Shown piece by piece: positions 1,941 through 51,306 of a stretch of 64,000 nucleotides of DNA. Source of the DNA: an uncultured Candidatus Saccharibacteria bacterium (GTDB lineage: Bacteria > Patescibacteriota > Minisyncoccia > Phycocordibacterales > UBA1006); NCBI GenBank assembly GCA_964415895.1, contig CAYQCC010000004.1:243-64242 (forward strand), in the 5' to 3' direction. Both the position numbers and the translations under genes were made by a program. Each line of letters opens with the position of its first letter. Within the stretch, counting starts at the first letter, position 1. The notes beneath the pieces are model-generated. The model saw only the letters and a list, made by a program, of their open reading frames with translations. It did not search any database and was not told where the DNA came from.

Positions 1941-4900
1941 TTATTGTTTCTCTACTTTATTTTCTGCACTTGCCCAAACAATATTTTCCGCACCAACTGT
2001 TGAAAGTAGTTCGTCTTTCAATTCACTATTAGAAAACCATTGTGGCTCTGGAATTTCAAGGTGAGCAACAACTCGGTCAGATGGCATAAGATCTGCATCT
2101 TTTCGCATATCCTGGATCTGGCGAACCAAATCTCGCATGTCGCCTTCATCACGCAATGTGTCTGTGATTTCTGTGTCAAGTTCTACTGTTCCCTTTTCGA
2201 GTGTTTCCTTTACAACAACTTCTTTTACGTTCAATTCGTCTTTCACAATATCCAAGTAATCACTTGGAAGATCTGATTGTGAAATGAATAATGTTGCCAG
2301 TGGCTGTCGAACTTTTACATTTGATTTTTGTCGCGTTTCAAGTCCGAGCGTTACGATGTCGCGTACTGACTGCATTGGTACAAGCGTATCAGCAACCAAT
2401 GAAAAATCTCTCTTGTTATCAATCCAGTATTCCAAATGAACTGAAATTTCATCACGATCTTCATATCTCACCTTTGCAAATATTTCCTCTGCAATAAACG
2501 GCGTAAATGGCGCCATAGTAATCGCAATATTGCGCAAAATTAACCGCGTCACAACCAGCGCATCAATTCGATCCTGATCATTATCAGACTTGAAACGATC
2601 ACGACTGCGACGGATATACCATGTTGAAAGTTCGTTTATAAATTCACGGATTGCGCGCGCAGGCGTTAAAATATCATATGATTCCAGTCCTGTAGTGACG
2701 ATCTCTGCTAGTTCCTCATATTTTGCCAAGATCCACTTATCGAGAACATTTGTACTGTCATATGCATTGCGCTCGTTAGGACTAGGAAGTTGTGCTGGTT
2801 TATACATTTCATAAAAGCTCACAACATTCATCAGCGGATTAAATACTTTCTTCTTTACTTCATCGAGCGACTTCTCATCAAAGTTCTTTGTTTCACCTGG
2901 TTGGTTCACGCTATAGAACCAGAATCGTGCAACATCCGCTCCGTATTTCTCGAATACTTCCCATGGAGATACAATATTCCCTTTTGACTTTGACATCTTC
3001 GTTCCATCTGCTGCCATCAACAACCCCAAACAAATTACATTTTTATAATTGTTTGTCGGATTGTCATTTAGCAAGTTTGCAATTGCGTGCATGGTATAAA
3101 ACCATCCGCGCGTTTGGTCAACTCCTTCAGAAATGTAATCTGCTGGCAAAGGTTTAAAATCAATTGGCTCACCTAACATATGATTCTGCGCATATGCCAT
3201 TGCACCTGAATCAAACCATACATCCATAATTGCAGACGTACGTGTTAATTTTTCTCCATCAAGCTCGAGTTGAACTTGATCAATATATGGCTTGTGAAAA
3301 TCAAGTTCGTACTGTTCGTTTCTTGGAAGCAATGTGTAATTAATTTCTCGTATTTCTGCATTTTTAAAATTATTGTAGCTTCCTGGAACTTTTATCAAAT
3401 CAGCAAATGTAAATCCTTCCACAATCATTTCGATTGAACGAAGTGAGCTTCCATGTCCAACGATTAAAATATTTTTTCCTTGGTATGTCTTTTCAAATTC
3501 TTCCAACATATGACCAACGCGCGCAATCACCTCTTGGAATGATTCTGCGCCTTCGGATTTGAACGTGTATCGATTTTCCGCAGCATTACGAGCCTGGAAA
3601 AACAATTCTAAATCCTTCCATTGAAATTCTGGTCCGACATTCCATTCCAACATTCGATCGTCAGTTATAATTGCATTTTCATCCATTCCAAGAGTACTGG
3701 CAACGATTTTTGCAGTTTCCTGTGCACGAACGATTGGTGACGCAATGATTAGATCAATCTTTTTACCCTTAAGTGACTCTGCAGATTCAACAACCTGTGT
3801 TTGTCCCAGTTCTGTCAGATGATTATCAGGATTATTTGCAAAATCCCATACACCATATTTAAATCCACCCTCGATATTGCTTTGAGCTTGTCCATGACGC
3901 ATTAGTAAATATTTGTTTCCAGACTTCTTGGAATATTTTTTGATATCTTCAAGTGAGCCGATAACAACGCGCTTTGAAGCATCTGCGGTTTCCCATACAG
4001 GAATCGGAGTTCCCCAGTAACGTTCGCGGGAAATTGCCCAGTCTTTTATTCCATCAAGCCATTCGCCAAAGCGTCCCTCTTTGATATGGTCCGGCTCCCA
4101 GTTGACGTTCTCGTTTGCTGCGAGAAGCTTCTCTCGCAATGAAGACATGCGGAAATACCATGACCCGCGTGCGTAATACAACAAAGGCGTATTACATCGC
4201 CAGCAGTGCGGATAGCTGTGCAAGTAGTTTTCTTTCTTAAACAGTAAATTTCTGTCTGTTAGGTCATTGATGATATCGATCGCAAGTGTCGGCTTTCCAG
4301 ATTCATCACTTTGTTTTACATAGCGACCTGACAATTTTAGTGTATCTGTATCGCATCCGCTGAGATACTTTCCTTCCTCATTAACGACATGGAACTTTGG
4401 CAAATTATATTTCGTTCCGAGTTCAAAATCGTCCGCTCCGTACATGGGCGCAATATGAACGATTCCGGTTCCGTCAGTCGTCGTCACGAAATCTGCAGCA
4501 TACACCTGGAATGCGTTTTCAAGTTTTGATTTTTGATCTGCTGGAAGTAAGTTTGAAAGAAATGGAAAAAGTGGTTCGTATTTCAGACCAACTAAATCTT
4601 TTCCTTTAAAATTAGCTACGCATATTGATTTAAAAATATAATCATCTTCGTTCGAAGTTCCTTTTCTCTGTTCAATTCTCAAACCTATTGGATAATCAGC
4701 ACGTTCTGGAACATTTGGAAAACCGAATACTTTATGTACTAAATTAGAAGCTAAAATATAACGACCTGTTGGGATTGAGTCACTTTTAATAACGTCCCAA
4801 GCAGAATATTCAATCTCGCCCCCAACAGCAAGCGCAACATTTCCTGGAAGCGTCCATGGAGTGGTTGTCCAAGCTAGAATATGAGTACTATCGTCAATTT

Positions 4901-5609
4901 CAAATTCTCCAATTTTCCGTCCTTGTTCTACTTTAAATTTCACATATGCCGTCACATCTTTCACGTCTTGATATGCACCTGGCTGATTCAATTCATGACT
5001 AGATAAAGCTGTTCCGCATCGTGGACACCATGGAAGAATTTTAAAATCTTTAAATATCAAGTCGTTTCCTGCAGTATCTTTTCGTTCAGAAACTTTCTTA
5101 ACAATTCCCCACAAAGCCTCGATATATCCATTTTCATAAGTAATATACGGACGCTCCATATCCAACCAATAACCCATACGGTCAGTTAACGTTTCCCATT
5201 CATGTTTATATTCCCAAACACTTTCTTTACATTTTTTATTATATGCAGCCACACCGTATACTTCAATTTCCTTTTTTGATTTCAATCCCAGTTGTTTTTC
5301 AACTTGAAGTTCCACTGGAAGTCCGTGCGTATCCCAACCGGCTTTTCGTTGCACATTAAATCCACGCATTGTTTTAAAACGCGGAATAATATCTTTGAAC
5401 GAACGAGCGCCGACATGGTGAATTCCTGGTCGACCATTTGCTGTCGGCGGTCCTTCAAAGAACACGAAGTCACCTTGTGTAGATTCCTTTGCAAGAGTCT
5501 TATTGAAAATCTGATTGTCTTTCCAGTACTGCAAAATTGCCTCTTCGCGAAGTGCGGTTTCTGATTTTTCCAGATTTTCTGGAATGAAATTGTTTGGGTT
5601 TGAGTTCAT
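1941..5609 (-). CDS. ileS: Isoleucyl-tRNA synthetase with an in-frame histidine-phosphatase (PGAM-like) insertion
   Basis: HIGH-type motif PGIHHVGARS, KMSKS motif KMSKSKGN, editing-domain motifs. Likely start is at MNSNPNN (5609), not the ORF-track start 5717. About 190 aa (nt ~3342-3917) carry LLMRHGQAQSN and LIVGHGSSLRS histidine-phosphatase motifs, inserted between the WISRERYWGTPIP and DVWFDSG blocks. Confidence 0.95.
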   Translation of the reverse strand: MNSNPNNFIPENLEKSETALREEAILQYWKDNQIFNKTLAKESTQGDFVFFEGPPTANGRPGIHHVGARSFKDIIPRFKTMRGFNVQRKAGWDTHGLPVELQVEKQLGLKSKKEIEVYGVAAYNKKCKESVWEYKHEWETLTDRMGYWLDMERPYITYENGYIEALWGIVKKVSERKDTAGNDLIFKDFKILPWCPRCGTALSSHELNQPGAYQDVKDVTAYVKFKVEQGRKIGEFEIDDSTHILAWTTTPWTLPGNVALAVGGEIEYSAWDVIKSDSIPTGRYILASNLVHKVFGFPNVPERADYPIGLRIEQRKGTSNEDDYIFKSICVANFKGKDLVGLKYEPLFPFLSNLLPADQKSKLENAFQVYAADFVTTTDGTGIVHIAPMYGADDFELGTKYNLPKFHVVNEEGKYLSGCDTDTLKLSGRYVKQSDESGKPTLAIDIINDLTDRNLLFKKENYLHSYPHCWRCNTPLLYYARGSWYFRMSSLREKLLAANENVNWEPDHIKEGRFGEWLDGIKDWAISRERYWGTPIPVWETADASKRVVIGSLEDIKKYSKKSGNKYLLMRHGQAQSNIEGGFKYGVWDFANNPDNHLTELGQTQVVESAESLKGKKIDLIIASPIVRAQETAKIVASTLGMDENAIITDDRMLEWNVGPEFQWKDLELFFQARNAAENRYTFKSEGAESFQEVIARVGHMLEEFEKTYQGKNILIVGHGSSLRSIEMIVEGFTFADLIKVPGSYNNFKNAEIREINYTLLPRNEQYELDFHKPYIDQVQLELDGEKLTRTSAIMDVWFDSGAMAYAQNHMLGEPIDFKPLPADYISEGVDQTRGWFYTMHAIANLLNDNPTNNYKNVICLGLLMAADGTKMSKSKGNIVSPWEVFEKYGADVARFWFYSVNQPGETKNFDEKSLDEVKKKVFNPLMNVVSFYEMYKPAQLPSPNERNAYDSTNVLDKWILAKYEELAEIVTTGLESYDILTPARAIREFINELSTWYIRRSRDRFKSDNDQDRIDALVVTRLILRNIAITMAPFTPFIAEEIFAKVRYEDRDEISVHLEYWIDNKRDFSLVADTLVPMQSVRDIVTLGLETRQKSNVKVRQPLATLFISQSDLPSDYLDIVKDELNVKEVVVKETLEKGTVELDTEITDTLRDEGDMRDLVRQIQDMRKDADLMPSDRVVAHLEIPEPQWFSNSELKDELLSTVGAENIVWASAENKVEKQ

Positions 5610-5611
5610 AA

Positions 5612-5900
5612 TAATAAATTGAAGCTTATAAATTGGGTAACGAAAAAAACTCGTCTCTGCGCGCGGCAAAAGTGCCGTGAGCAAGGACGAGTTTTCTGTA
5701 AGAAATCGTGGTACCACCTTGGTTTGAAGCGGGAAAATTGCGAAGCAATTTTCCCGCTTCCTTATTGCAGCTGTGACAGGCTTACCTGTTGGATTCTACG
5801 TCCGTTCAAAGCGGATTTCTTTCCAAAGCTCCAGAGTGATTAGCTCTTTCATAGCGTCGTGGAATGAGTATAGCACAGATTGGCAAGGATTCAAGACAGT
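5612..5900 (-). promoter_or_regulatory. T-box riboswitch leader (terminator/antiterminator) and promoter upstream of ileS
   Basis: Minus strand contains a T-box-like aaccaaGGTGGTACCacg sequence, then a terminator hairpin ctcgtc...gacgag plus U-run just upstream of the ileS ATG. There is a perfect stem gaagcgggaaaattgc/gcaattttcccgcttc. Candidate sigma70 promoter TTGAAT-16nt-TATACT near 5865-5895. Confidence 0.55.
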
Positions 5901-6120: not shown

Positions 6121-6648
6121 ATGAAAACTTTTGAACTTGGACAAGACGAACATATCGTCGCAATATTCCGCAAACACCCATTTTATATTTGGATTTCAAT
6201 TGCAAAATATATTTTAATTGCAGTACTACCTGCACTTGCAAGTGCGTTTATTGGAAACATTCTTGGTGATTATTCTGAATATGCATTTGCAGCATATCTG
6301 ATATTTCTAATCATTCTTTGGATCTCCTTTTTTATCGAGTACACAGACTTTATGTTAGACACATGGGTTCTGACTAACGAGCGATTAGTAGATGTCGATC
6401 AGCTTTCGCTATTTTCTCGACGTATTTCAACATTATCTCTTGATCGAATTCAGGATATTACTATTCAGCAAATTGGATTTGTGGATACCATGCTTGGTAT
6501 TGGAACTGTCTTTATCCAAACCGCTGGAGCCGAGGACGAATTTAAAATCCTCGGCATGCGAGATCCAGGCCACGTGAAAGACATTATTATGCAGACGTAT
6601 CAGGCAAGTAAGGATCGTGTATTTGAAAAGATTGCAGAATTGCGCTAG
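6121..6648 (+). CDS. Membrane protein with bacterial PH-like (YdbT/DUF304-type) domain
   Basis: 175 aa. Two N-terminal TM helices followed by a beta-rich domain typical of membrane-anchored bPH proteins. Confidence 0.45.
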   Translation: MKTFELGQDEHIVAIFRKHPFYIWISIAKYILIAVLPALASAFIGNILGDYSEYAFAAYLIFLIILWISFFIEYTDFMLDTWVLTNERLVDVDQLSLFSRRISTLSLDRIQDITIQQIGFVDTMLGIGTVFIQTAGAEDEFKILGMRDPGHVKDIIMQTYQASKDRVFEKIAELR

Positions 6649-6778
6649 GAGTACTACTTTACTTGCATAAAGCACCATTGTGTGCGATACTACGCGTATG
6701 TATTTCTTGTGCCCGGCCGTGTAAACGTCAGTGCTGATTAATACGGTCGAGTTTTTTATATGGATATCTCTCCAAACT

Positions 6779-7123
6779 ATGTCAAATAATTTGTATGTAA
6801 GTTCCCTAGCTTGGGCAACTACTGATGAATCTTTGCGTGATTACTTTGCCACTATCGGTGAAGTAAAAAGCGCTAGTGTAATCAAGGACAAAATGTCAGG
6901 ACGTTCACGTGGATTCGGATTCGTAGAAATGGCAACAGAAGAAGACGCTGCTAAAGCTGTCGAAATGTTGAATGATACAGATCTAGAAGGCCGCACAATT
7001 CGAGTTGCAATCGCGCAACCTCGAGAAGAACGACCTCGACGTGAGTTCAATAACGGTCCTCGAGAAGGTGGATACAATGGTGGAAATCGTGACGAACGAT
7101 CAAACCATTCATCTTCTTACTAA
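6779..7123 (+). CDS. RRM-type RNA-binding protein with Gly/Arg-rich tail
   Basis: RNP2 LYVSSL, RNP1 RGFGFVEM, and a C-terminal RGG/NGG-rich tail. Start taken at MSNNLYV. Confidence 0.8.
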   Translation: MSNNLYVSSLAWATTDESLRDYFATIGEVKSASVIKDKMSGRSRGFGFVEMATEEDAAKAVEMLNDTDLEGRTIRVAIAQPREERPRREFNNGPREGGYNGGNRDERSNHSSSY

Positions 7124-7229: not shown

Positions 7230-8345
7230 TTAAATTGTAATTTTAATTGCTTCAAGGAGCTTATTGCTCAGACTTTCGGCTGATGACAAGCTAATAGTAG
7301 CACCTGCTGCATTCCCATGCCCGCTTCCACCAAAGCGCTCCGCAAGTCTTAATGCAAATCCGTCAGCAGACCGGTAGGACCTGATGCTTAGCCGATATGT
7401 ACCCTTTGGTTCTGTTAGAAGATGAACACCTATTATAAGTACGTTAATTCCACCATATTCTGATAATGCCTCAATTCCCGTATGCGTATCAACGGATTGT
7501 GGAGCCGACGCTTCATGCCTCATTTCTTTGTCCAATACGAATCTAAGTTCGCCTGCAGCAATCACGTCATCCTGGTTCAATATGCTGATTCCGAAACCAG
7601 TTTGAGCAATATGATAAACGTGCAGATTTTCTAAAATCTTCTTTCTGGTCGACAATTCGTAAAAACTGCCGGACACATTCATCTCATCGATAATGCTCGT
7701 CGATTTGCTGATTTCGTACAGCATGGCAAACAGAGCAAGCGCTTCCGGATTCTTTGACGAATTAGCGAACTTGTCAGTATCGGTCCAGATACCGACCTGT
7801 AGCAACTCGCACACTTGGTGCGTTAGAAGTGCTTGGTTATGCAGGTACAGCATTTTTGCCAAGATGTGGCATGTTGAGGATGCGTCAGTCTCAATGAACT
7901 TATTAGAATCATCAATAAAGAACATATTATTCCTATCATGATGATCAATAGCAATGACTTTCTTTCCCTTTCCAACAAATGACACTATCTCTGCATCCTT
8001 AACACCGATTCGGTCATAACTTGAACAATCAAGGATAACCAAGGTATCAGGCTTGGAATACCGATCGTACATGTATTCGTATATGCTTTTGTCCGTAACA
8101 TTGTGCTTTTGAATGTATTCAGACAAATAGGTAAATTTGCTCTGAGCTCCTGACGGACCCCACAGCATGGTTACCTTTTTCCCAAGCGAAGTTAATACTT
8201 CAGCCAAGGCAAGATTGCTCGCAAGACTATCCGCATCGGGATACTGGTGACATGAAAGCAAGAAATGTGTACCCGAGTCGATCATTCTTTGAAAGAAAGA
8301 TTTGTACTTAGATGTTTCTGCGACTGTGAATGTTAGTTCTACCAT
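7230..8345 (-). CDS. DHH/DHHA1 phosphoesterase (NrnA-like oligoribonuclease/pAp phosphatase)
   Basis: Motifs HQYPDADSLAS, IAIDHHD, and GGGH in the DHHA1 region. Confidence 0.75.
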   Translation of the reverse strand: MVELTFTVAETSKYKSFFQRMIDSGTHFLLSCHQYPDADSLASNLALAEVLTSLGKKVTMLWGPSGAQSKFTYLSEYIQKHNVTDKSIYEYMYDRYSKPDTLVILDCSSYDRIGVKDAEIVSFVGKGKKVIAIDHHDRNNMFFIDDSNKFIETDASSTCHILAKMLYLHNQALLTHQVCELLQVGIWTDTDKFANSSKNPEALALFAMLYEISKSTSIIDEMNVSGSFYELSTRKKILENLHVYHIAQTGFGISILNQDDVIAAGELRFVLDKEMRHEASAPQSVDTHTGIEALSEYGGINVLIIGVHLLTEPKGTYRLSIRSYRSADGFALRLAERFGGSGHGNAAGATISLSSAESLSNKLLEAIKITI

Positions 8346-8435: not shown

Positions 8436-10265
8436 TTACATTCTGTCTGGTGCCTCAATTGCAAGTAATTGAAGACCATTTTTAATCACAATCTGGGTTG
8501 CTCGAGCTATCGCTAAACGATGTGATGACATTTCTGGATTCTCTGTATCAATAATTTTGTTCGCTCCGTAAAACGAATTGAACGATCGAGCAACTTCCAA
8601 TAAATACGTGACAATATAATTGGGCGCATATTCGGTAATTGCAGATTCGACGACTTCTGGAAATCGGTAGAGTATTTTCTCGATATCAGATATTTCGTTG
8701 CCGTCTTTTATTTCTGCTGCAATATTTTGTTCTAACCCTTTATCAAGCAACGTTTGAATTCGTGCGTGTGTATACTGCAGGTATGGTCCGGAATCACCTT
8801 CAAATGACAAACTTGTTTCTGGGTCAAAATTAATATTCATTCCAGGTTTTGCACGTAAGATTGCAAACTTGATTGCACCAATTGCGATTCTTTCACAGAC
8901 ATAATCAATATTTGCATAATTTGAATCTCGGTGCAGCATTTTTGTTTTAACCTCTAATGCAACATCTTCAATCATTTCTGCTGCTGGTGGTACACCACCC
9001 AGTCGTGACGACATCTTTTGTCCCTTGAATAACATACGCCCATGTGGAACATGCTCGCTTTTTTCTACTGCGCCATAGATTACATCTCCGTGATTCTTTT
9101 TTTCTTTCTCTATATCAGCATACGCTGCTAAAACGATGTTAAAATGAGGAATCTGTTCATGATCTGTTACAAAAATAGAAAGATCGGGACTGAATCGTTC
9201 AAACTTAAGATCTATAAGTCCAAGATCTTTTGCTTCGTATGTTGGATTGCTCTGACTGTTTATAAAAACAGAAGTATTAATATCTTTTCGCAATTCATCA
9301 GGAATATAAACAATCGCTCCTTCGCTTTTTACAAAAACAGAAGGCGTATAATCTTCTACGATTCTTTTTCCCTGAATCCCCGATTCGCTTTCAAAAATAA
9401 AGTGATCGATTTCTGTTTCGAGTTTGTCTTTAAGGAATGAAAATAGATACGTTCTAGACGCATTACTAAATTTCAAATACAAATCTGTCCACAAATATTT
9501 TTCCAGCTCATCTTTCGGATAATCTTTTGAAGTACCTAAATAATTAGAAGTATAGTCATAAAGAACGTCAGCAATTTCTTTCACTTTAGTCTTAACGTCG
9601 TCGGAATCGTCATATAAACGAGTACCTACTACATATGCATCGCCAGCAATTATTGCGTTATCAAAACCTGATTCTTCTGACATACGGCTAATAGTGAGCG
9701 AATCATAATAAAGAGCGTATACCGCCTTTGCAACACCTAAAGAAATGTCTGACGGAAATGACATGGTGGTCACCCTTGCACCACTTGCTCGCATTAAACG
9801 CACTAATGATTCGCCAATTGCATTGTTCATCATGTGCCCAATGTGAAACGGCTTGAACAGGTTTGGACTTGAATGTTCAATTAATATATTTTTACCGGCA
9901 TGTATTTCAAGATTTCCAAAACTATCTTCTGCGGTAATAATTTCTTTCATTGATTGCGTAAAGAATTCTGGAACAAGTTTAAAATTAATGAAACCAGGAC
10001 CTGCAATTTCGATAGATTCAATTTCTGGAACGTTTTGATTGTTTATCTCTGCGACAATCATTTCGGCAACTTCGCGTGGATTTTTACCCAAAGTTTTAGA
10101 TGCAGCCATGGCAACGTTGGTTGCATAATCACCGCGAGATAGATCGGTTGGATGTTCAACAACAAAAGAAACCCCTGAAATATCAAGGTTTTGTAATGCT
10201 TTTTCTATTGCTGCGCGAATACCTGTCGAAATCATAATATCCAGAGTGTAACATAAAAGCCTCAA
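8436..10265 (-). CDS. argS: Arginyl-tRNA synthetase
   Basis: Class I HIGH variant FKPFHIGHMMN and ArgRS-like anticodon-binding C-terminus. Alternative start at 10235 (MISTGIRAA). Confidence 0.9.
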   Translation of the reverse strand: MRLLCYTLDIMISTGIRAAIEKALQNLDISGVSFVVEHPTDLSRGDYATNVAMAASKTLGKNPREVAEMIVAEINNQNVPEIESIEIAGPGFINFKLVPEFFTQSMKEIITAEDSFGNLEIHAGKNILIEHSSPNLFKPFHIGHMMNNAIGESLVRLMRASGARVTTMSFPSDISLGVAKAVYALYYDSLTISRMSEESGFDNAIIAGDAYVVGTRLYDDSDDVKTKVKEIADVLYDYTSNYLGTSKDYPKDELEKYLWTDLYLKFSNASRTYLFSFLKDKLETEIDHFIFESESGIQGKRIVEDYTPSVFVKSEGAIVYIPDELRKDINTSVFINSQSNPTYEAKDLGLIDLKFERFSPDLSIFVTDHEQIPHFNIVLAAYADIEKEKKNHGDVIYGAVEKSEHVPHGRMLFKGQKMSSRLGGVPPAAEMIEDVALEVKTKMLHRDSNYANIDYVCERIAIGAIKFAILRAKPGMNINFDPETSLSFEGDSGPYLQYTHARIQTLLDKGLEQNIAAEIKDGNEISDIEKILYRFPEVVESAITEYAPNYIVTYLLEVARSFNSFYGANKIIDTENPEMSSHRLAIARATQIVIKNGLQLLAIEAPDRM

Positions 10266-29257: not shown

Positions 29258-29331
29258 GGGGGACTATCGGGAATCGAACCCGAATTGCGGGATCCACAAA
29301 CCCGAGTGTTAACCGTTACACCATAGTCCCC
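29258..29331 (-). tRNA. tRNA-His (GTG)
   Basis: Cloverleaf with extra 5' G(-1), D-arm GTGTAACGGTTAACAC, anticodon loop TTGTGGA, T-arm TCGGGTTCGATTCCCGA. Confidence 0.85.
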
Positions 29332-38873: not shown

Positions 38874-40424
38874 ATGAATATTACTAAACTAGCACTTATT
38901 TATTGTCGTGTCAGTTCCAAGCAACAATTGGATGGTGGCGGTCTTGGTAGCCAAGAACAAAGATGCCAAGAATATGCAAAATTTAACGGATATGAAGTTG
39001 TGGAAATATTCCACGATTCTTTTTCTGGTGGTGGTGACTTTATGAAACGACCTGCTATGCGTCAATTATTGGCGTATGTTGATGAACACTCACAAAATCA
39101 GTATGTAGTTATTTTTGATGACTTAAAACGCTTTGCACGAGATGTAAAATTTCATTGGGAATTGAGGAGTGAATTTGAATCACGAAACCTTATACCTGAA
39201 TGTTTAAACTTTAAATTTGAAGAAACACCAGAGGGAGCTTTTATTGAAACAATCATAGCTGCACAAGGTGAGCTCGAACGTAAACAACAAAAAAGACAGG
39301 TGTTGCAAAAAATGAAAGCACGAATGCAGAGGGGTTTGTCTTGCTTTCCTACTGCACCATACGGATATACCTATGTTGCAAGTTCCTTGCATGGCGGAAA
39401 GATCTTACAGATTGATAAAGAAGCATCAAAGGTTGTAAGGATGGCATTTTCCGAATTTGCAAATGGTAAATTATTTCATCTAAGAGATGTGACTAAGTTT
39501 CTTACAACAAATAGTGTAAGAAAAAAGAAAGTTGCATTTAAAGACGAAACTGTAAAAAGCATGTTGAGTAATGTTATCTACATTGGTTTCTTAGAATATC
39601 CGACATGGAATGTAGAACTTACTAAAGGTGTTCATGATGCAATTATTCCACTCGAATTATTTGAAAGAGTACAAATAAGATTAAAAGGTAAAATACCGCA
39701 AAGAACTCGTGTTGATATGAGAGAGGACTTTCCACTTCGTGGATATGTAAACTGTATTCATTGCAAACGTCAATTAACAGCATCTTGGAGTACAGGCAGA
39801 ATAGGGTCGAAACATCCTTATTATCGTTGCCATACCAAAGGATGTGTCATGGCAGGAAAAAGCATACAGAAAAAAGAACTGCATGATTTTTTTGAAGAGT
39901 ACATAAAACCACTCTCATTTAAGCCACAAATTAAAACAATAGCAAAACTTAAAATTCTTGAAGAGGCATTGAGAAGAAATAAGATAAAATATTTAGAATT
40001 AGAAAAAAAGAAACAGGAAATTATTTTAATAGATCAACAAATAGAAACTTTAGTTGAAAGGCTTTCTGCGCCACTAGATAGAAGTATTGCTGAGATATAC
40101 GAAAGCCAAATTGCTAATCTGAATAAAAAAAGAATTTTATTAAATGAGATCTCTATAAAAGATGATACTAACCCTAAATTGTTGGAACCTATAGTAGATA
40201 TTGCCTTTAAAAAGAGTGAAAACCCTTATGCTACATGGAAAAAAGACAAATACGAACTACAAAAACAGGTGTTGAATATGCTGTTTTATACCAATTTAGA
40301 ATATGGTAAAAAAGAGAAGTTTGGAAACACGAACGAGGCTTATTTATTAAGGCTTTTTAAGAGAATTGAGATTGAAAACAACCAAAATTTACAGCATGTC
40401 GAGATGCAGGGATTCGAACCCTGA
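38874..40424 (+). CDS. Large serine recombinase
   Basis: Resolvase domain with catalytic Ser in YCRVSSKQQ. Recombinase domain and Zn-ribbon CIHCKRQL...YYRCHTKGC. The 3' end overlaps tRNA-Pro by 26 nt. Confidence 0.85.
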   Translation: MNITKLALIYCRVSSKQQLDGGGLGSQEQRCQEYAKFNGYEVVEIFHDSFSGGGDFMKRPAMRQLLAYVDEHSQNQYVVIFDDLKRFARDVKFHWELRSEFESRNLIPECLNFKFEETPEGAFIETIIAAQGELERKQQKRQVLQKMKARMQRGLSCFPTAPYGYTYVASSLHGGKILQIDKEASKVVRMAFSEFANGKLFHLRDVTKFLTTNSVRKKKVAFKDETVKSMLSNVIYIGFLEYPTWNVELTKGVHDAIIPLELFERVQIRLKGKIPQRTRVDMREDFPLRGYVNCIHCKRQLTASWSTGRIGSKHPYYRCHTKGCVMAGKSIQKKELHDFFEEYIKPLSFKPQIKTIAKLKILEEALRRNKIKYLELEKKKQEIILIDQQIETLVERLSAPLDRSIAEIYESQIANLNKKRILLNEISIKDDTNPKLLEPIVDIAFKKSENPYATWKKDKYELQKQVLNMLFYTNLEYGKKEKFGNTNEAYLLRLFKRIEIENNQNLQHVEMQGFEP

Positions 40425-40471
40425 GTCACCTGCTCCCAAAGCAGGCATGTTAGCCGTTACACCACATCTCG
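40399..40471 (-). tRNA. tRNA-Pro (TGG)
   Basis: Acceptor CGAGATG/CATCTCG, anticodon arm CCTGC-TTTGGGA-GCAGG, T-arm CAGGGTTCGAATCCCTG. Confidence 0.8.
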
Positions 40472-46382: not shown

Positions 46383-46454
46383 GCCCTTGTAGTTCAATGG
46401 ATAGAACAGGAGACTTCTAAGCTCTTAATCGAGGTTCGATTCCTCGCGAGGGCA
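46383..46454 (+). tRNA. tRNA-Arg (TCT)
   Basis: Anticodon loop CTTCTAA, D-arm GTTC-AATGGATA-GAAC, T-arm CGAGGTTCGATTCCTCG. Confidence 0.8.
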
Positions 46455-51233: not shown

Positions 51234-51306
51234 TGCCCTCGGCAGGACTCGAACCCGCATCTTCCTCAGTAGAACAGAGGCACCCTATCCATTGGACCAC
51301 GAGGGC
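51234..51306 (-). tRNA. tRNA-Arg (probable TCT anticodon), second divergent copy
   Basis: Acceptor GCCCTCG/CGAGGGC, T-arm GCGGGTTCGAGTCCTGC, anticodon arm CCTCT-GTTCTAC-TGAGG with a T-T closing mismatch. Only about 70% identical to the tRNA-Arg at 46383 (aligned by eye) and higher GC. Confidence 0.6.

Follow-up and report, generated by a model that had tools for sequence, protein, structure and literature searches.

A histidine phosphatase domain nested within the isoleucyl-tRNA synthetase of many Patescibacteria

INTRODUCTION

The subject of this study is an isoleucyl-tRNA synthetase (IleRS) that carries a histidine phosphatase domain inside its polypeptide. It is encoded by ileS in a 64,000-nucleotide stretch of DNA from an uncultured Candidatus Saccharibacteria bacterium (contig CAYQCC010000004.1, positions 243 to 64,242), the whole of which we call the window. 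The closest described enzymes are the type-2 isoleucyl-tRNA synthetases (IleRS2) represented by the structures 8C8U/8C8W and by 1ILE of Thermus thermophilus. The window protein has the same order of Rossmann-type (HUP) core, editing domain in connective peptide 1 (CP1), anticodon-binding domain, and DUF5915 as these enzymes, matches their structures with Foldseek TMt values of 0.72 to 0.83, and has the G/AXHH motif of hyper-resistant IleRS2. It differs from 8c8w in an insert of 208 amino acids, where the IleRS2 has only about 7 residues, and in its editing domain, which is about 33 amino acids shorter in the IleRS2.

The insert itself resembles a second group of well-described enzymes, the small branch-1 histidine phosphatases PspA (phosphoserine phosphatase, 4IJ5), CobC (alpha-ribazole phosphatase, 6E4B), GpgP Rv2419c (mycobacterial glucosyl-3-phosphoglycerate phosphatase, 4PZ9), HFP (an enzyme of riboflavin synthesis, 9MMH), and PhoE (1H2E), with which it shares the fold, a length of about 200 amino acids, and the RHG/R/E/H set of residues. 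These phosphatases are free-standing, whereas the insert is nested, and identity to them is just 21 to 24%. Branch-1 histidine phosphatases work through a phospho-histidine intermediate, with arginines and a second histidine binding the phosphate and a glutamate serving as the acid/base.

Nested or fused catalytic domains of other kinds provide further points of comparison. The CP1 editing domain of IleRS, ValRS, and LeuRS is likewise a nested hydrolase, located in the connective-peptide part of that same synthetase, where it forms a second active site that acts on the mobile tRNA 3' end, and it is the closest analogy for the putative action of the insert. The two are unrelated in fold, however, and CP1 hydrolyzes the ester of a mischarged amino acid, whereas the reaction expected of the insert is phosphomonoester hydrolysis via phospho-histidine. 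A precedent for an extra enzyme domain inside IleRS is the curated NCBIfam model NF040702 (ileS_w_GNAT), which describes GNAT-bearing IleRS proteins; we came across no counterpart of this model for phosphatase-bearing IleRS and, in open-access PMC and bioRxiv, no published function for the NF040702 family. GNAT and phosphatase domains occur together in two of the proteins described below (P0262 and P0235), but the window protein has no GNAT domain in Pfam and scores 307.5 bits against the NF040702 cut-off of 1999. Proteins of the RNase H/acid phosphatase type (PRK07238, Rv2228c) also join a CobC-like His_Phos_1 domain to a nucleic-acid enzyme, although end to end and not nested. A PRK07238-type model is the best-scoring NCBIfam model for the insert, at 69.5 bits against a cut-off of 326.

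RESULTS

The reading frame that contains the insert is uninterrupted for 1258 codons (1941-5717 on the minus strand, in the list of window open reading frames), as the original prediction had stated. That prediction had also taken the product to be an IleRS, in agreement with the NCBIfam equivalog for ileS, TIGR00392, which scored 837 bits against a cut-off of 621.4 and matched in two pieces flanking the insert. The top PDB matches of the whole protein by phmmer were IleRS2 8c8w (E 7.7e-205) and 1ile. A full-length AlphaFold2 (AF2) model had a pLDDT of 90.1 and a pTM of 0.84, and Foldseek aligned it to IleRS structures with TMt values of 0.72 to 0.84. The gene, the insertion, and the motifs that flank it are as follows.

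1941..5609, minus strand: ileS, type-2 (G/AXHH-type) IleRS of 1222 amino acids counted from the ATG (reading frame, TIGR00392, PDB phmmer, AF2, and Foldseek)
4011..4040, minus strand: WAISRERYWG, host motif on the N-terminal flank of the insertion site, called site A below (motif reading; conserved in all homologues)
3306..3929, minus strand: in-frame insertion, consisting of the phosphatase and two short linkers, residues 597-804 (gap relative to 8c8w between chain residues 478 and 486)
3381..3908, minus strand: His_Phos_1 (PF00300), branch-1 histidine phosphatase, residues 604-779 (Pfam, AF2, and Foldseek)
3204..3296, minus strand: HKPYID...DVWFDSG, residues 808-838, C-terminal flank leading into the second Rossmann half (aligns to 8c8w from residue 486)

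Alignment to 8c8w, the IleRS2 of Priestia megaterium, places the junctions precisely: residues 367-596 of the window protein correspond to chain residues 271-478 and residues 805-1172 to chain residues 486-852, so that an insertion of about 208 amino acids stands in place of about 7 residues. The same insertion point was found in 18 partial and 119 full-length homologues. His_Phos_1 was matched within the insertion with an E value of 1.6e-26 and 93.7 bits, against a gathering threshold of 21.7, over profile positions 2-171 of 194. The segment originally proposed as a phosphatase (3342-3917, residues 601-792) lies inside the boundaries drawn here, and Pfam and the 8c8w alignment both bear out that a His_Phos_1 domain of about 200 amino acids interrupts the WISRERYWGTPIP ... 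DVWFDSG block. The N-terminal flank of the insertion reads WAISRERYWGTPIP (residues 560-573). Every solved IleRS that aligned lacks the insert, which disposes of the objection that it might be a known subdomain of IleRS.

The original prediction had placed the insertion in the catalytic core, and this needs to be qualified: the block is interrupted, but the site lies in a connective-peptide loop and not in the core strands. In the P. megaterium enzyme the HUP core comprises residues 40-168 and 513-632 (PMC10485003), and the insertion, at chain residues 478 to 486, therefore falls outside it. Its place in the sequence thus puts the insertion in a connective-peptide loop that shortly precedes the second Rossmann (HUP) half. 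Brkic et al. (PMC10485003) name CP1 and CP2 as the two connective peptides, and Chen et al. (PMC11685878) distinguish a CP core, CP1, CP2, and CP3. The cited papers state no boundaries for the segment that bears the insert, which we take, from sequence position alone, to be the last connective peptide.

In the full-length model the host minidomain at this site runs from strand to strand to helix, continues into the phosphatase, and ends with a short helix and a hairpin. The junctions of the window protein read KKYSKKSGN and PLPRNEQYELD. Conservation was assessed in 36 full-length homologues (A2), 124 insert sequences (A3), and 117 homologues (A4); in A3 the near-invariant linker residues are N6 of KKSGN before the domain and P203, N205, E209, L210, and D211 of PLPHNENYELD after it. 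The GC content of the insert (0.35 to 0.41) is similar to that of the remainder of the gene. A separate observation concerns the zinc-knuckle cysteines that flank the corresponding site in some IleRS proteins, that of T. thermophilus among them. The pattern CxxC...CxxC is missing from the window protein (flanks 3225-3278 and 3960-4000, minus strand) and from 116 of 117 close homologues, and it is still found in P0004, P0007, P0011, and P0013, which are insert-bearing fragments of greater divergence.

The architecture is not confined to a single genome. Among the full-length homologues listed, 119 of 120 combine PF00133 and PF00300, with identities of 50 to 80%, and most have lengths of 1130 to 1230 amino acids; the contigs that carry them reach 442 kb. 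When the 281-amino-acid junction region was scanned exhaustively with HMMER against 1.84 billion 50%-level representatives, at least 133 of these scored E<1e-30; nearly all matched positions 1-281 in one stretch, located at about positions 450-750 of the protein. The best 150 representatives of this search all appear to be IleRS or fragments of it. Genomes in GTDB with the same junction were assigned to Candidatus Saccharibacteria (L001 and L002), Patescibacteria (L003), and Paceibacteria (L005), with continuous reading frames of about 1190 amino acids in L003 and L005, and other source names included Nomurabacteria, Pacebacteria, Minisyncoccia, Colwellbacteria, and Paceibacterota. The phosphatase-bearing protein is thus the ordinary IleRS across a broad set of Patescibacteria (the candidate phyla radiation [CPR]). 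In the databases these proteins are labeled "isoleucyl-tRNA synthetase" or "class I tRNA ligase family protein," and one fragment is labeled "broad specificity phosphatase PhoE." A word-indexed search for free-standing close homologues of the insert gave just 3 weak matches of about 180 amino acids, on contigs of about 1 to 3 kb. One further entry, P0120, carries the name of an ostracod, Darwinula stevensoni. With 64% identity to the window IleRS across 44% of its length, it has IleRS domains together with the DALR_1 domain of ArgRS and no phosphatase; a contaminating CPR contig probably gave rise to this eukaryotic gene model.

We regard the architecture as virtually certain to be real. A frameshift, a chimeric assembly, two adjacent genes, an intein, or a mis-joined glycolytic dPGM could in principle give the same appearance, and the only finding of this sort was a broken reading frame in L001. 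That break coincides with masked sequence, a run of N that falls in the phosphatase domain (L001 ~6370-6420) and gives the gene the look of two reading frames, so that L001 is not a pseudogene; the window and over 119 homologues located on long contigs have an uninterrupted frame. Many partial entries (P0184, P0204, P0234, P0238, P0275, P0296, and others) could be mistaken for split ileS genes, since they start exactly at conserved internal methionines in RMSxLR, LMRHG, and VMYGxDDF; we read them as products of gene calling on short contigs. The full-length genes are continuous on long ones. As the original prediction had said, there is no intein signature: Pfam detected no Hint or LAGLIDADG family at E<=0.01. 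The dPGM equivalogs were missed as well (see below). We accordingly give an artifact or selfish element next to no credence. The earlier suggestion of a domesticated selfish insertion fares no better, given the lack of endonuclease or intein features and the strong purifying selection on the catalytic residues.

The insert certainly belongs to the histidine phosphatase superfamily. Modeled alone by AF2 with an alignment of 124 sequences, it reached a pLDDT of 95.6 and a pTM of 0.92; within the full-length model its blocks had pLDDT values of 81 to 97, and the junctions were confident. It is predicted to fold as an alpha/beta lobe of its own on short conserved linkers. Foldseek matched the insert with probability 1.00, TM scores of 0.70 to 0.75, and 21 to 24% identity to small phosphatases, namely, 4pz9 GpgP (E 2e-12, TM 0.71), 9mmh HFP (0.74), 4ij5 PspA (0.75), 1h2e PhoE, and 6e4b CobC; structures of dPGM and true mutases ranked below them. 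The original description of the domain as PGAM/SixA-like is thus right as to the branch-1 family and wrong as to the type, which is that of PhoE, CobC, PspA, and GpgP. As a dPGM the insert was rejected by NF038349 (65.8 against 225 bits), NF002339 (42.9 against 316), and TIGR01258 (28.2 against 81.7), and as a SixA by TIGR00249 (33.9 against 74.5 bits, with residues 605-679 alone matched). None of the NCBIfam subfamily equivalogs for dPGM, SixA, CobC, PspA, and RNase H/acid phosphatase attained its cut-off, so the substrate is not transferable by homology.

The residues expected of an active branch-1 enzyme are all present.

3894..3899, minus strand: R607-H608, the RHG motif in LLMRHGQAQSN, with H608 the nucleophile by family homology
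3726..3728, minus strand: R664 (SPIVR), second phosphate-binding arginine
3645..3647, minus strand: E691 (MLEWN), predicted general acid/base
3453..3455, minus strand: H755 (VGHGSS, in LIVGHGSSLRS), second catalytic histidine

The two histidine-containing motifs had been named in the original prediction and are where it placed them; R664 and E691 complete the set. Across 156 domain copies, drawn mostly from 50%-level representatives, R607 and H608 are each kept in 152 of 152 ungapped copies, R664 in 156 of 156, and H755 in 153 of 154, while the position of E691 holds E in 146 and D in 10 of 156. In A3 all five of these residues are invariant, and the sole invariant positions of the insert are R12, H13, S65, R69, E96, H160, and D211. 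This conservation stands out against the rapid divergence of the domain as a whole, which is the fastest-evolving part of the protein: among 36 full-length homologues the insert averages a pairwise identity of 0.39, compared with 0.64 for the host and 0.71 for the catalytic core. On this sequence evidence the catalytic residues are under strong purifying selection. Retention of the catalytic set while the domain diverges to about 39% identity argues for retained catalysis over a degenerate scaffold, and the embedded phosphatase is very probably active. A noncatalytic role, as a structural brace, a dimerization module, or a phosphometabolite sensor that tunes IleRS allosterically, would fit the rigid conserved linkers and the confident full-length model, and several His_Phos_1 enzymes are dimers. 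Such a role would leave unexplained why the catalytic set is kept in about 99 to 100% of the 156 copies in spite of the low identity of the domain, and we consider it very unlikely.

The host enzyme around the insert has the following features.

Reading-frame residues 61-598, minus strand: tRNA-synt_1, PF00133 (Pfam)
Reading-frame residues 993-1140, minus strand: Anticodon_1 (Pfam)
Reading-frame residues 1176-1251, minus strand: DUF5915 (PF19302), IleRS2-type C-terminal domain (Pfam)
5415..5426, minus strand: noncanonical class I signature GIHH, residues 98-101 (motif reading)
4455..4868, minus strand: core of the editing (CP1) domain, from TTTPWT to GTGIVH (motif bounds)
4851-4868, minus strand: TTTPWT, residues 284-289 (motif reading)
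4455-4472, minus strand: GTGIVH, residues 416-421 (motif reading)
2985..2999, minus strand: KMSKS loop, residues 907-911 (motif reading)

The presence of DUF5915 and the ranking of IleRS2 and eukaryotic IleRS as top structures indicate the C-terminal organization of type 2, without the C-terminal zinc-binding domain. The class I signature is G/AxHH in 102 of the 117 A4 members and MLHH in 2; 13 were unreadable by the pattern. In IleRS2 the G/AXHH motif confers mupirocin hyper-resistance, and it was found in 86 of 163 IleRS2 (PMC10485003). Within KMSKS, the first S is nearly invariant and the other four residues are invariant in the 117 sequences; in A2 all five are invariant. The editing motifs behave similarly, with T238-T243, G370, G372, V374, and H375 invariant and T371 nearly so in A4, and all of them invariant in A2. 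Because GXHH, KMSKS, TTTPWT, and GTGxVH are invariant or nearly so, we judge the host to be intact, that is, a complete and apparently functional type-2 IleRS.

Two details of the host gene deserve mention. The open frame reaches a GTG at 5717, and an ATG at 5609 (codon 37, MNSNPNN) is the start shared with homologues. Translation probably begins at this ATG, giving a protein of 1222 amino acids, and the 36 codons upstream of it (5610-5717, minus strand) are probably untranslated; the region upstream of the ATG is AT-rich and has no clear Shine-Dalgarno sequence. The editing domain is about 33 amino acids longer than that of the P. megaterium enzyme, owing to residues 315-367 (~4617-4775, minus strand), which correspond to chain residues 252-271. 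This expansion was modeled with a pLDDT of 67 to 76, and no domain was assigned to it.

The phosphatase is not restricted to one loop of IleRS. Site A, occupied in the window, lies between WxISRxRYWG and DxWFxSG. Of three further sites that were defined, site B is bounded by DxWFxSG and DQTRGWF, site C separates KMSKS from the anticodon-binding domain, and site D is within the editing domain. Site A held 235 of the placeable His_Phos_1 copies. The multidomain cases are unusually long proteins, more distant relatives that came from the exhaustive search, and those that were resolved are the following.

P0327 (L007): site A empty, His_Phos_1 at sites B and C; single complete gene on a 28.6-kb contig
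P0257, P0242, and P0284: His_Phos_1 at site A plus a copy at site C
P0280 and P0266: tandem pair of His_Phos_1 at site A
P0248: four His_Phos_1 stretches by Pfam, three copies resolved by a custom hidden Markov model
P0262 (L009, 4001-8686): one GNAT at each of sites D and B, His_Phos_1 at site A; single complete gene on a 236-kb contig
P0292 (L008, 4001-8188): His_Phos_1 at site A, AAA_18-like P-loop domain at site B; single complete gene on an 11.6-kb contig
P0235 (L010, 4001-7201): in-frame IS200-like Y1 transposase domain in the editing domain, His_Phos_1, and GNAT; single called gene on an 11.3-kb contig

The AAA_18 match of P0292 is slightly under its cut-off (28.9 against 29.4 bits), and P0235 appears to be truncated at the C terminus. 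IleRS in these lineages accumulates enzyme domains. The catalytic set is present in every phosphatase copy at all sites, and copies at different sites are about 33 to 36% identical to one another. This level of identity argues against a recent intragenic duplication, as does the lack of clear pairing between copies of the same protein, save for the orthologous copies of P0280 and P0266.

The variety of inserted domains bears on one further explanation, namely, that the phosphatase, GNAT, and P-loop kinase-like inserts form a self-immunity module that inactivates natural IleRS inhibitors such as aminoacyl-adenylate mimics. Acetyltransferases have such a role elsewhere, as MccE and RimL detoxify processed microcin C. 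The GNAT domains (P0262 and P0235; NF040702) and the AAA_18-like domain (P0292) at neighboring loops would fit this idea, and the nearly clade-wide G/AXHH motif suggests past inhibitor pressure. We know of no IleRS inhibitor that carries a phosphomonoester, however, and of none that removal of a phosphomonoester would inactivate. With G/AXHH also common in IleRS2 generally, at the frequency cited above, and the AAA_18 match short of its cut-off, self-immunity strikes us as improbable.

The genomic neighborhood of ileS was scanned for possible partners of the insert. Ten genes near ileS encode RecO, FolD, an MGMT-like DNA-binding protein, a PH-domain membrane protein, an RRM protein, a DHH phosphoesterase, ArgRS, SHMT, ThyA, and Dcd. 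SHMT, ThyA, and the dCTP deaminase Dcd lie at a greater distance, and three of the others were recorded as adjoining ileS.

6731-7123, plus strand: RRM-type RNA-binding protein gene
7230-8345, minus strand: DHH-family phosphoesterase gene
8436-10265, minus strand: ArgRS gene

PADLOC gave no match, and PHROGs gave one, to a family of unknown function. There is no second His_Phos_1 in the window. The neighborhood speaks to the idea of a built-in protein phosphatase, which would strip inhibitory phosphates from IleRS itself or from a neighboring translation factor and so counter Ser/Thr/His kinases. HipA-type toxins phosphorylate GluRS and TrpRS, and the histidine phosphatase superfamily includes the protein phosphatases SixA, PGAM5, and Sts/UBASH3. 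UBASH3A is among the weak sequence matches of the insert (5wdi, E 1.9e-4), and tethering and multiple copies would suit action in cis. Nevertheless, the nearest relatives of the insert are small-molecule enzymes, the SixA model was missed, PADLOC found nothing, and no kinase is encoded among the ten scanned neighbors, so that we hold this role to be improbable too, if a shade less so than self-immunity. The window also contains four tRNA genes (29259-29330, minus strand; 40399-40471, minus strand; 46383-46454, plus strand; and 51234-51306, minus strand), and no rRNA genes were found in it.

DISCUSSION

The reading that we favor is that the window protein is a bifunctional IleRS whose nested domain is an active phosphomonoesterase with a plausible functional link to IleRS or tRNA; we rate the chance that this is correct, taken as a whole, as about even. 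By analogy with the family, R607, R664, and H755 would hold the phosphate of the substrate, H608 would attack it to form the phospho-histidine intermediate, and E691 would first protonate the leaving group and then activate a water molecule, with hydrolysis of the intermediate. Functional coupling to IleRS or tRNA, considered by itself, is a plausible proposal to which we give somewhat less than an even chance. It supposes that the phosphatase was selected for its tethering to IleRS and is no random passenger. Three observations argue for such selection: at least three loops of IleRS have this type of domain as a fixed part, tandem copies of it occur as well, and its catalytic residues are kept in every case; the linkers are strongly conserved; and the domain is confined to IleRS among the best 150 representatives.

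Several points weigh against this reading. No subfamily with a known substrate was matched, the best PDB sequence match of the insert having an E value of 3.5e-7, and the nearest relatives of the insert are metabolite phosphatases. An RNA-binding charge signature is absent from the insert, with a pI of 5.15 in the window protein and a family median of 6.3 that is not consistently basic, so that an extended RNA-binding surface finds no support. No functional partner for the insert was seen among the ten scanned neighbors, all of which are housekeeping genes. A repair activity attached to one of twenty synthetases is not obviously of use. Finally, because the copies at different sites are only about 33 to 36% identical, independent capture is indistinguishable from an old intragenic duplication.

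The main rival reading is a passenger, a housekeeping phosphatase for small molecules (phosphoserine, sugar phosphates, and intermediates of riboflavin or cobamide synthesis being examples). In a very small genome it would have come to lie within a gene that is essential and constitutively expressed, and it would work in trans, with no mechanistic link to aminoacylation. The insert has its nearest structural and sequence matches exclusively among metabolite phosphatases (GpgP, HFP, PspA, CobC, and PhoE), the surface of the insert is acidic, and with no close free-standing homologue found, the embedded copy could be the only one in the cell. CPR proteins are noted for unusual fusions (PMC5370408), which also counts toward this explanation. 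A passenger would not, however, explain the recurrence of the domain at three loops, in two to four copies and always in IleRS, nor the conserved linkers, and no subfamily cut-off was attained. We consider the passenger explanation unlikely on balance, though it is the rival that we take most seriously.

If the phosphatase is instead coupled to IleRS, the analogy with CP1 suggests what it might act on; the original prediction had proposed a phosphorylated substrate linked to translation, which may be right. The insert would remove a phosphate esterified to the ribose of an adenosine brought to IleRS, for example at a tRNA CCA end that carries a 2'- or 3'-phosphate and cannot be aminoacylated; removal of the phosphate would restore a chargeable end, and the insert would serve as a second repair or quality-control site of the enzyme. 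That the phosphatase acts specifically on the tRNA 3' end is, on the strength of this analogy, a doubtful proposition. A narrower version is more doubtful still: the embedded phosphatase might be a third active site that removes a 2'/3'-phosphate or what is left of a 3'-pyrophosphate of the sort added by toxic RelA/SpoT homologues. If that were true, damaged or toxin-blocked tRNA-Ile would become chargeable again, and the GNAT, kinase-like, and extra phosphatase inserts would be further modules for tRNA repair or counter-defense in cis, together an unrecognized set.

We found no description of an IleRS with an embedded histidine phosphatase in the full text of open-access PMC and bioRxiv, in keeping with the belief of the original prediction that none had been described. 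Both parts of the protein belong to textbook families. To our knowledge, editing domains are the sole catalytic domains known to be nested in the cores of aminoacyl-tRNA synthetases, and within the searched literature the nested phosphatase is a second type of catalytic domain not previously linked to these enzymes. Aminoacyl-tRNA synthetases are among the best-studied enzymes, and Patescibacteria make up a sizeable fraction of bacterial diversity; a second, unrelated hydrolase fixed in IleRS across a large slice of this group is unexpected. The fixation of the domain at several loops, and in multiple copies, suggests that phosphatase activity beside IleRS is useful to these bacteria. Should the substrate prove to be a metabolite, the nested domain would represent a striking economy of genes in minimal genomes and would call for caution in metabolic reconstructions, which may score it as a phosphoglycerate mutase. 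Should the substrate be tRNA or a nucleotide linked to aminoacylation, the phosphatase-bearing IleRS of Patescibacteria would exemplify quality control, repair, or counter-defense in translation of a kind not seen before.

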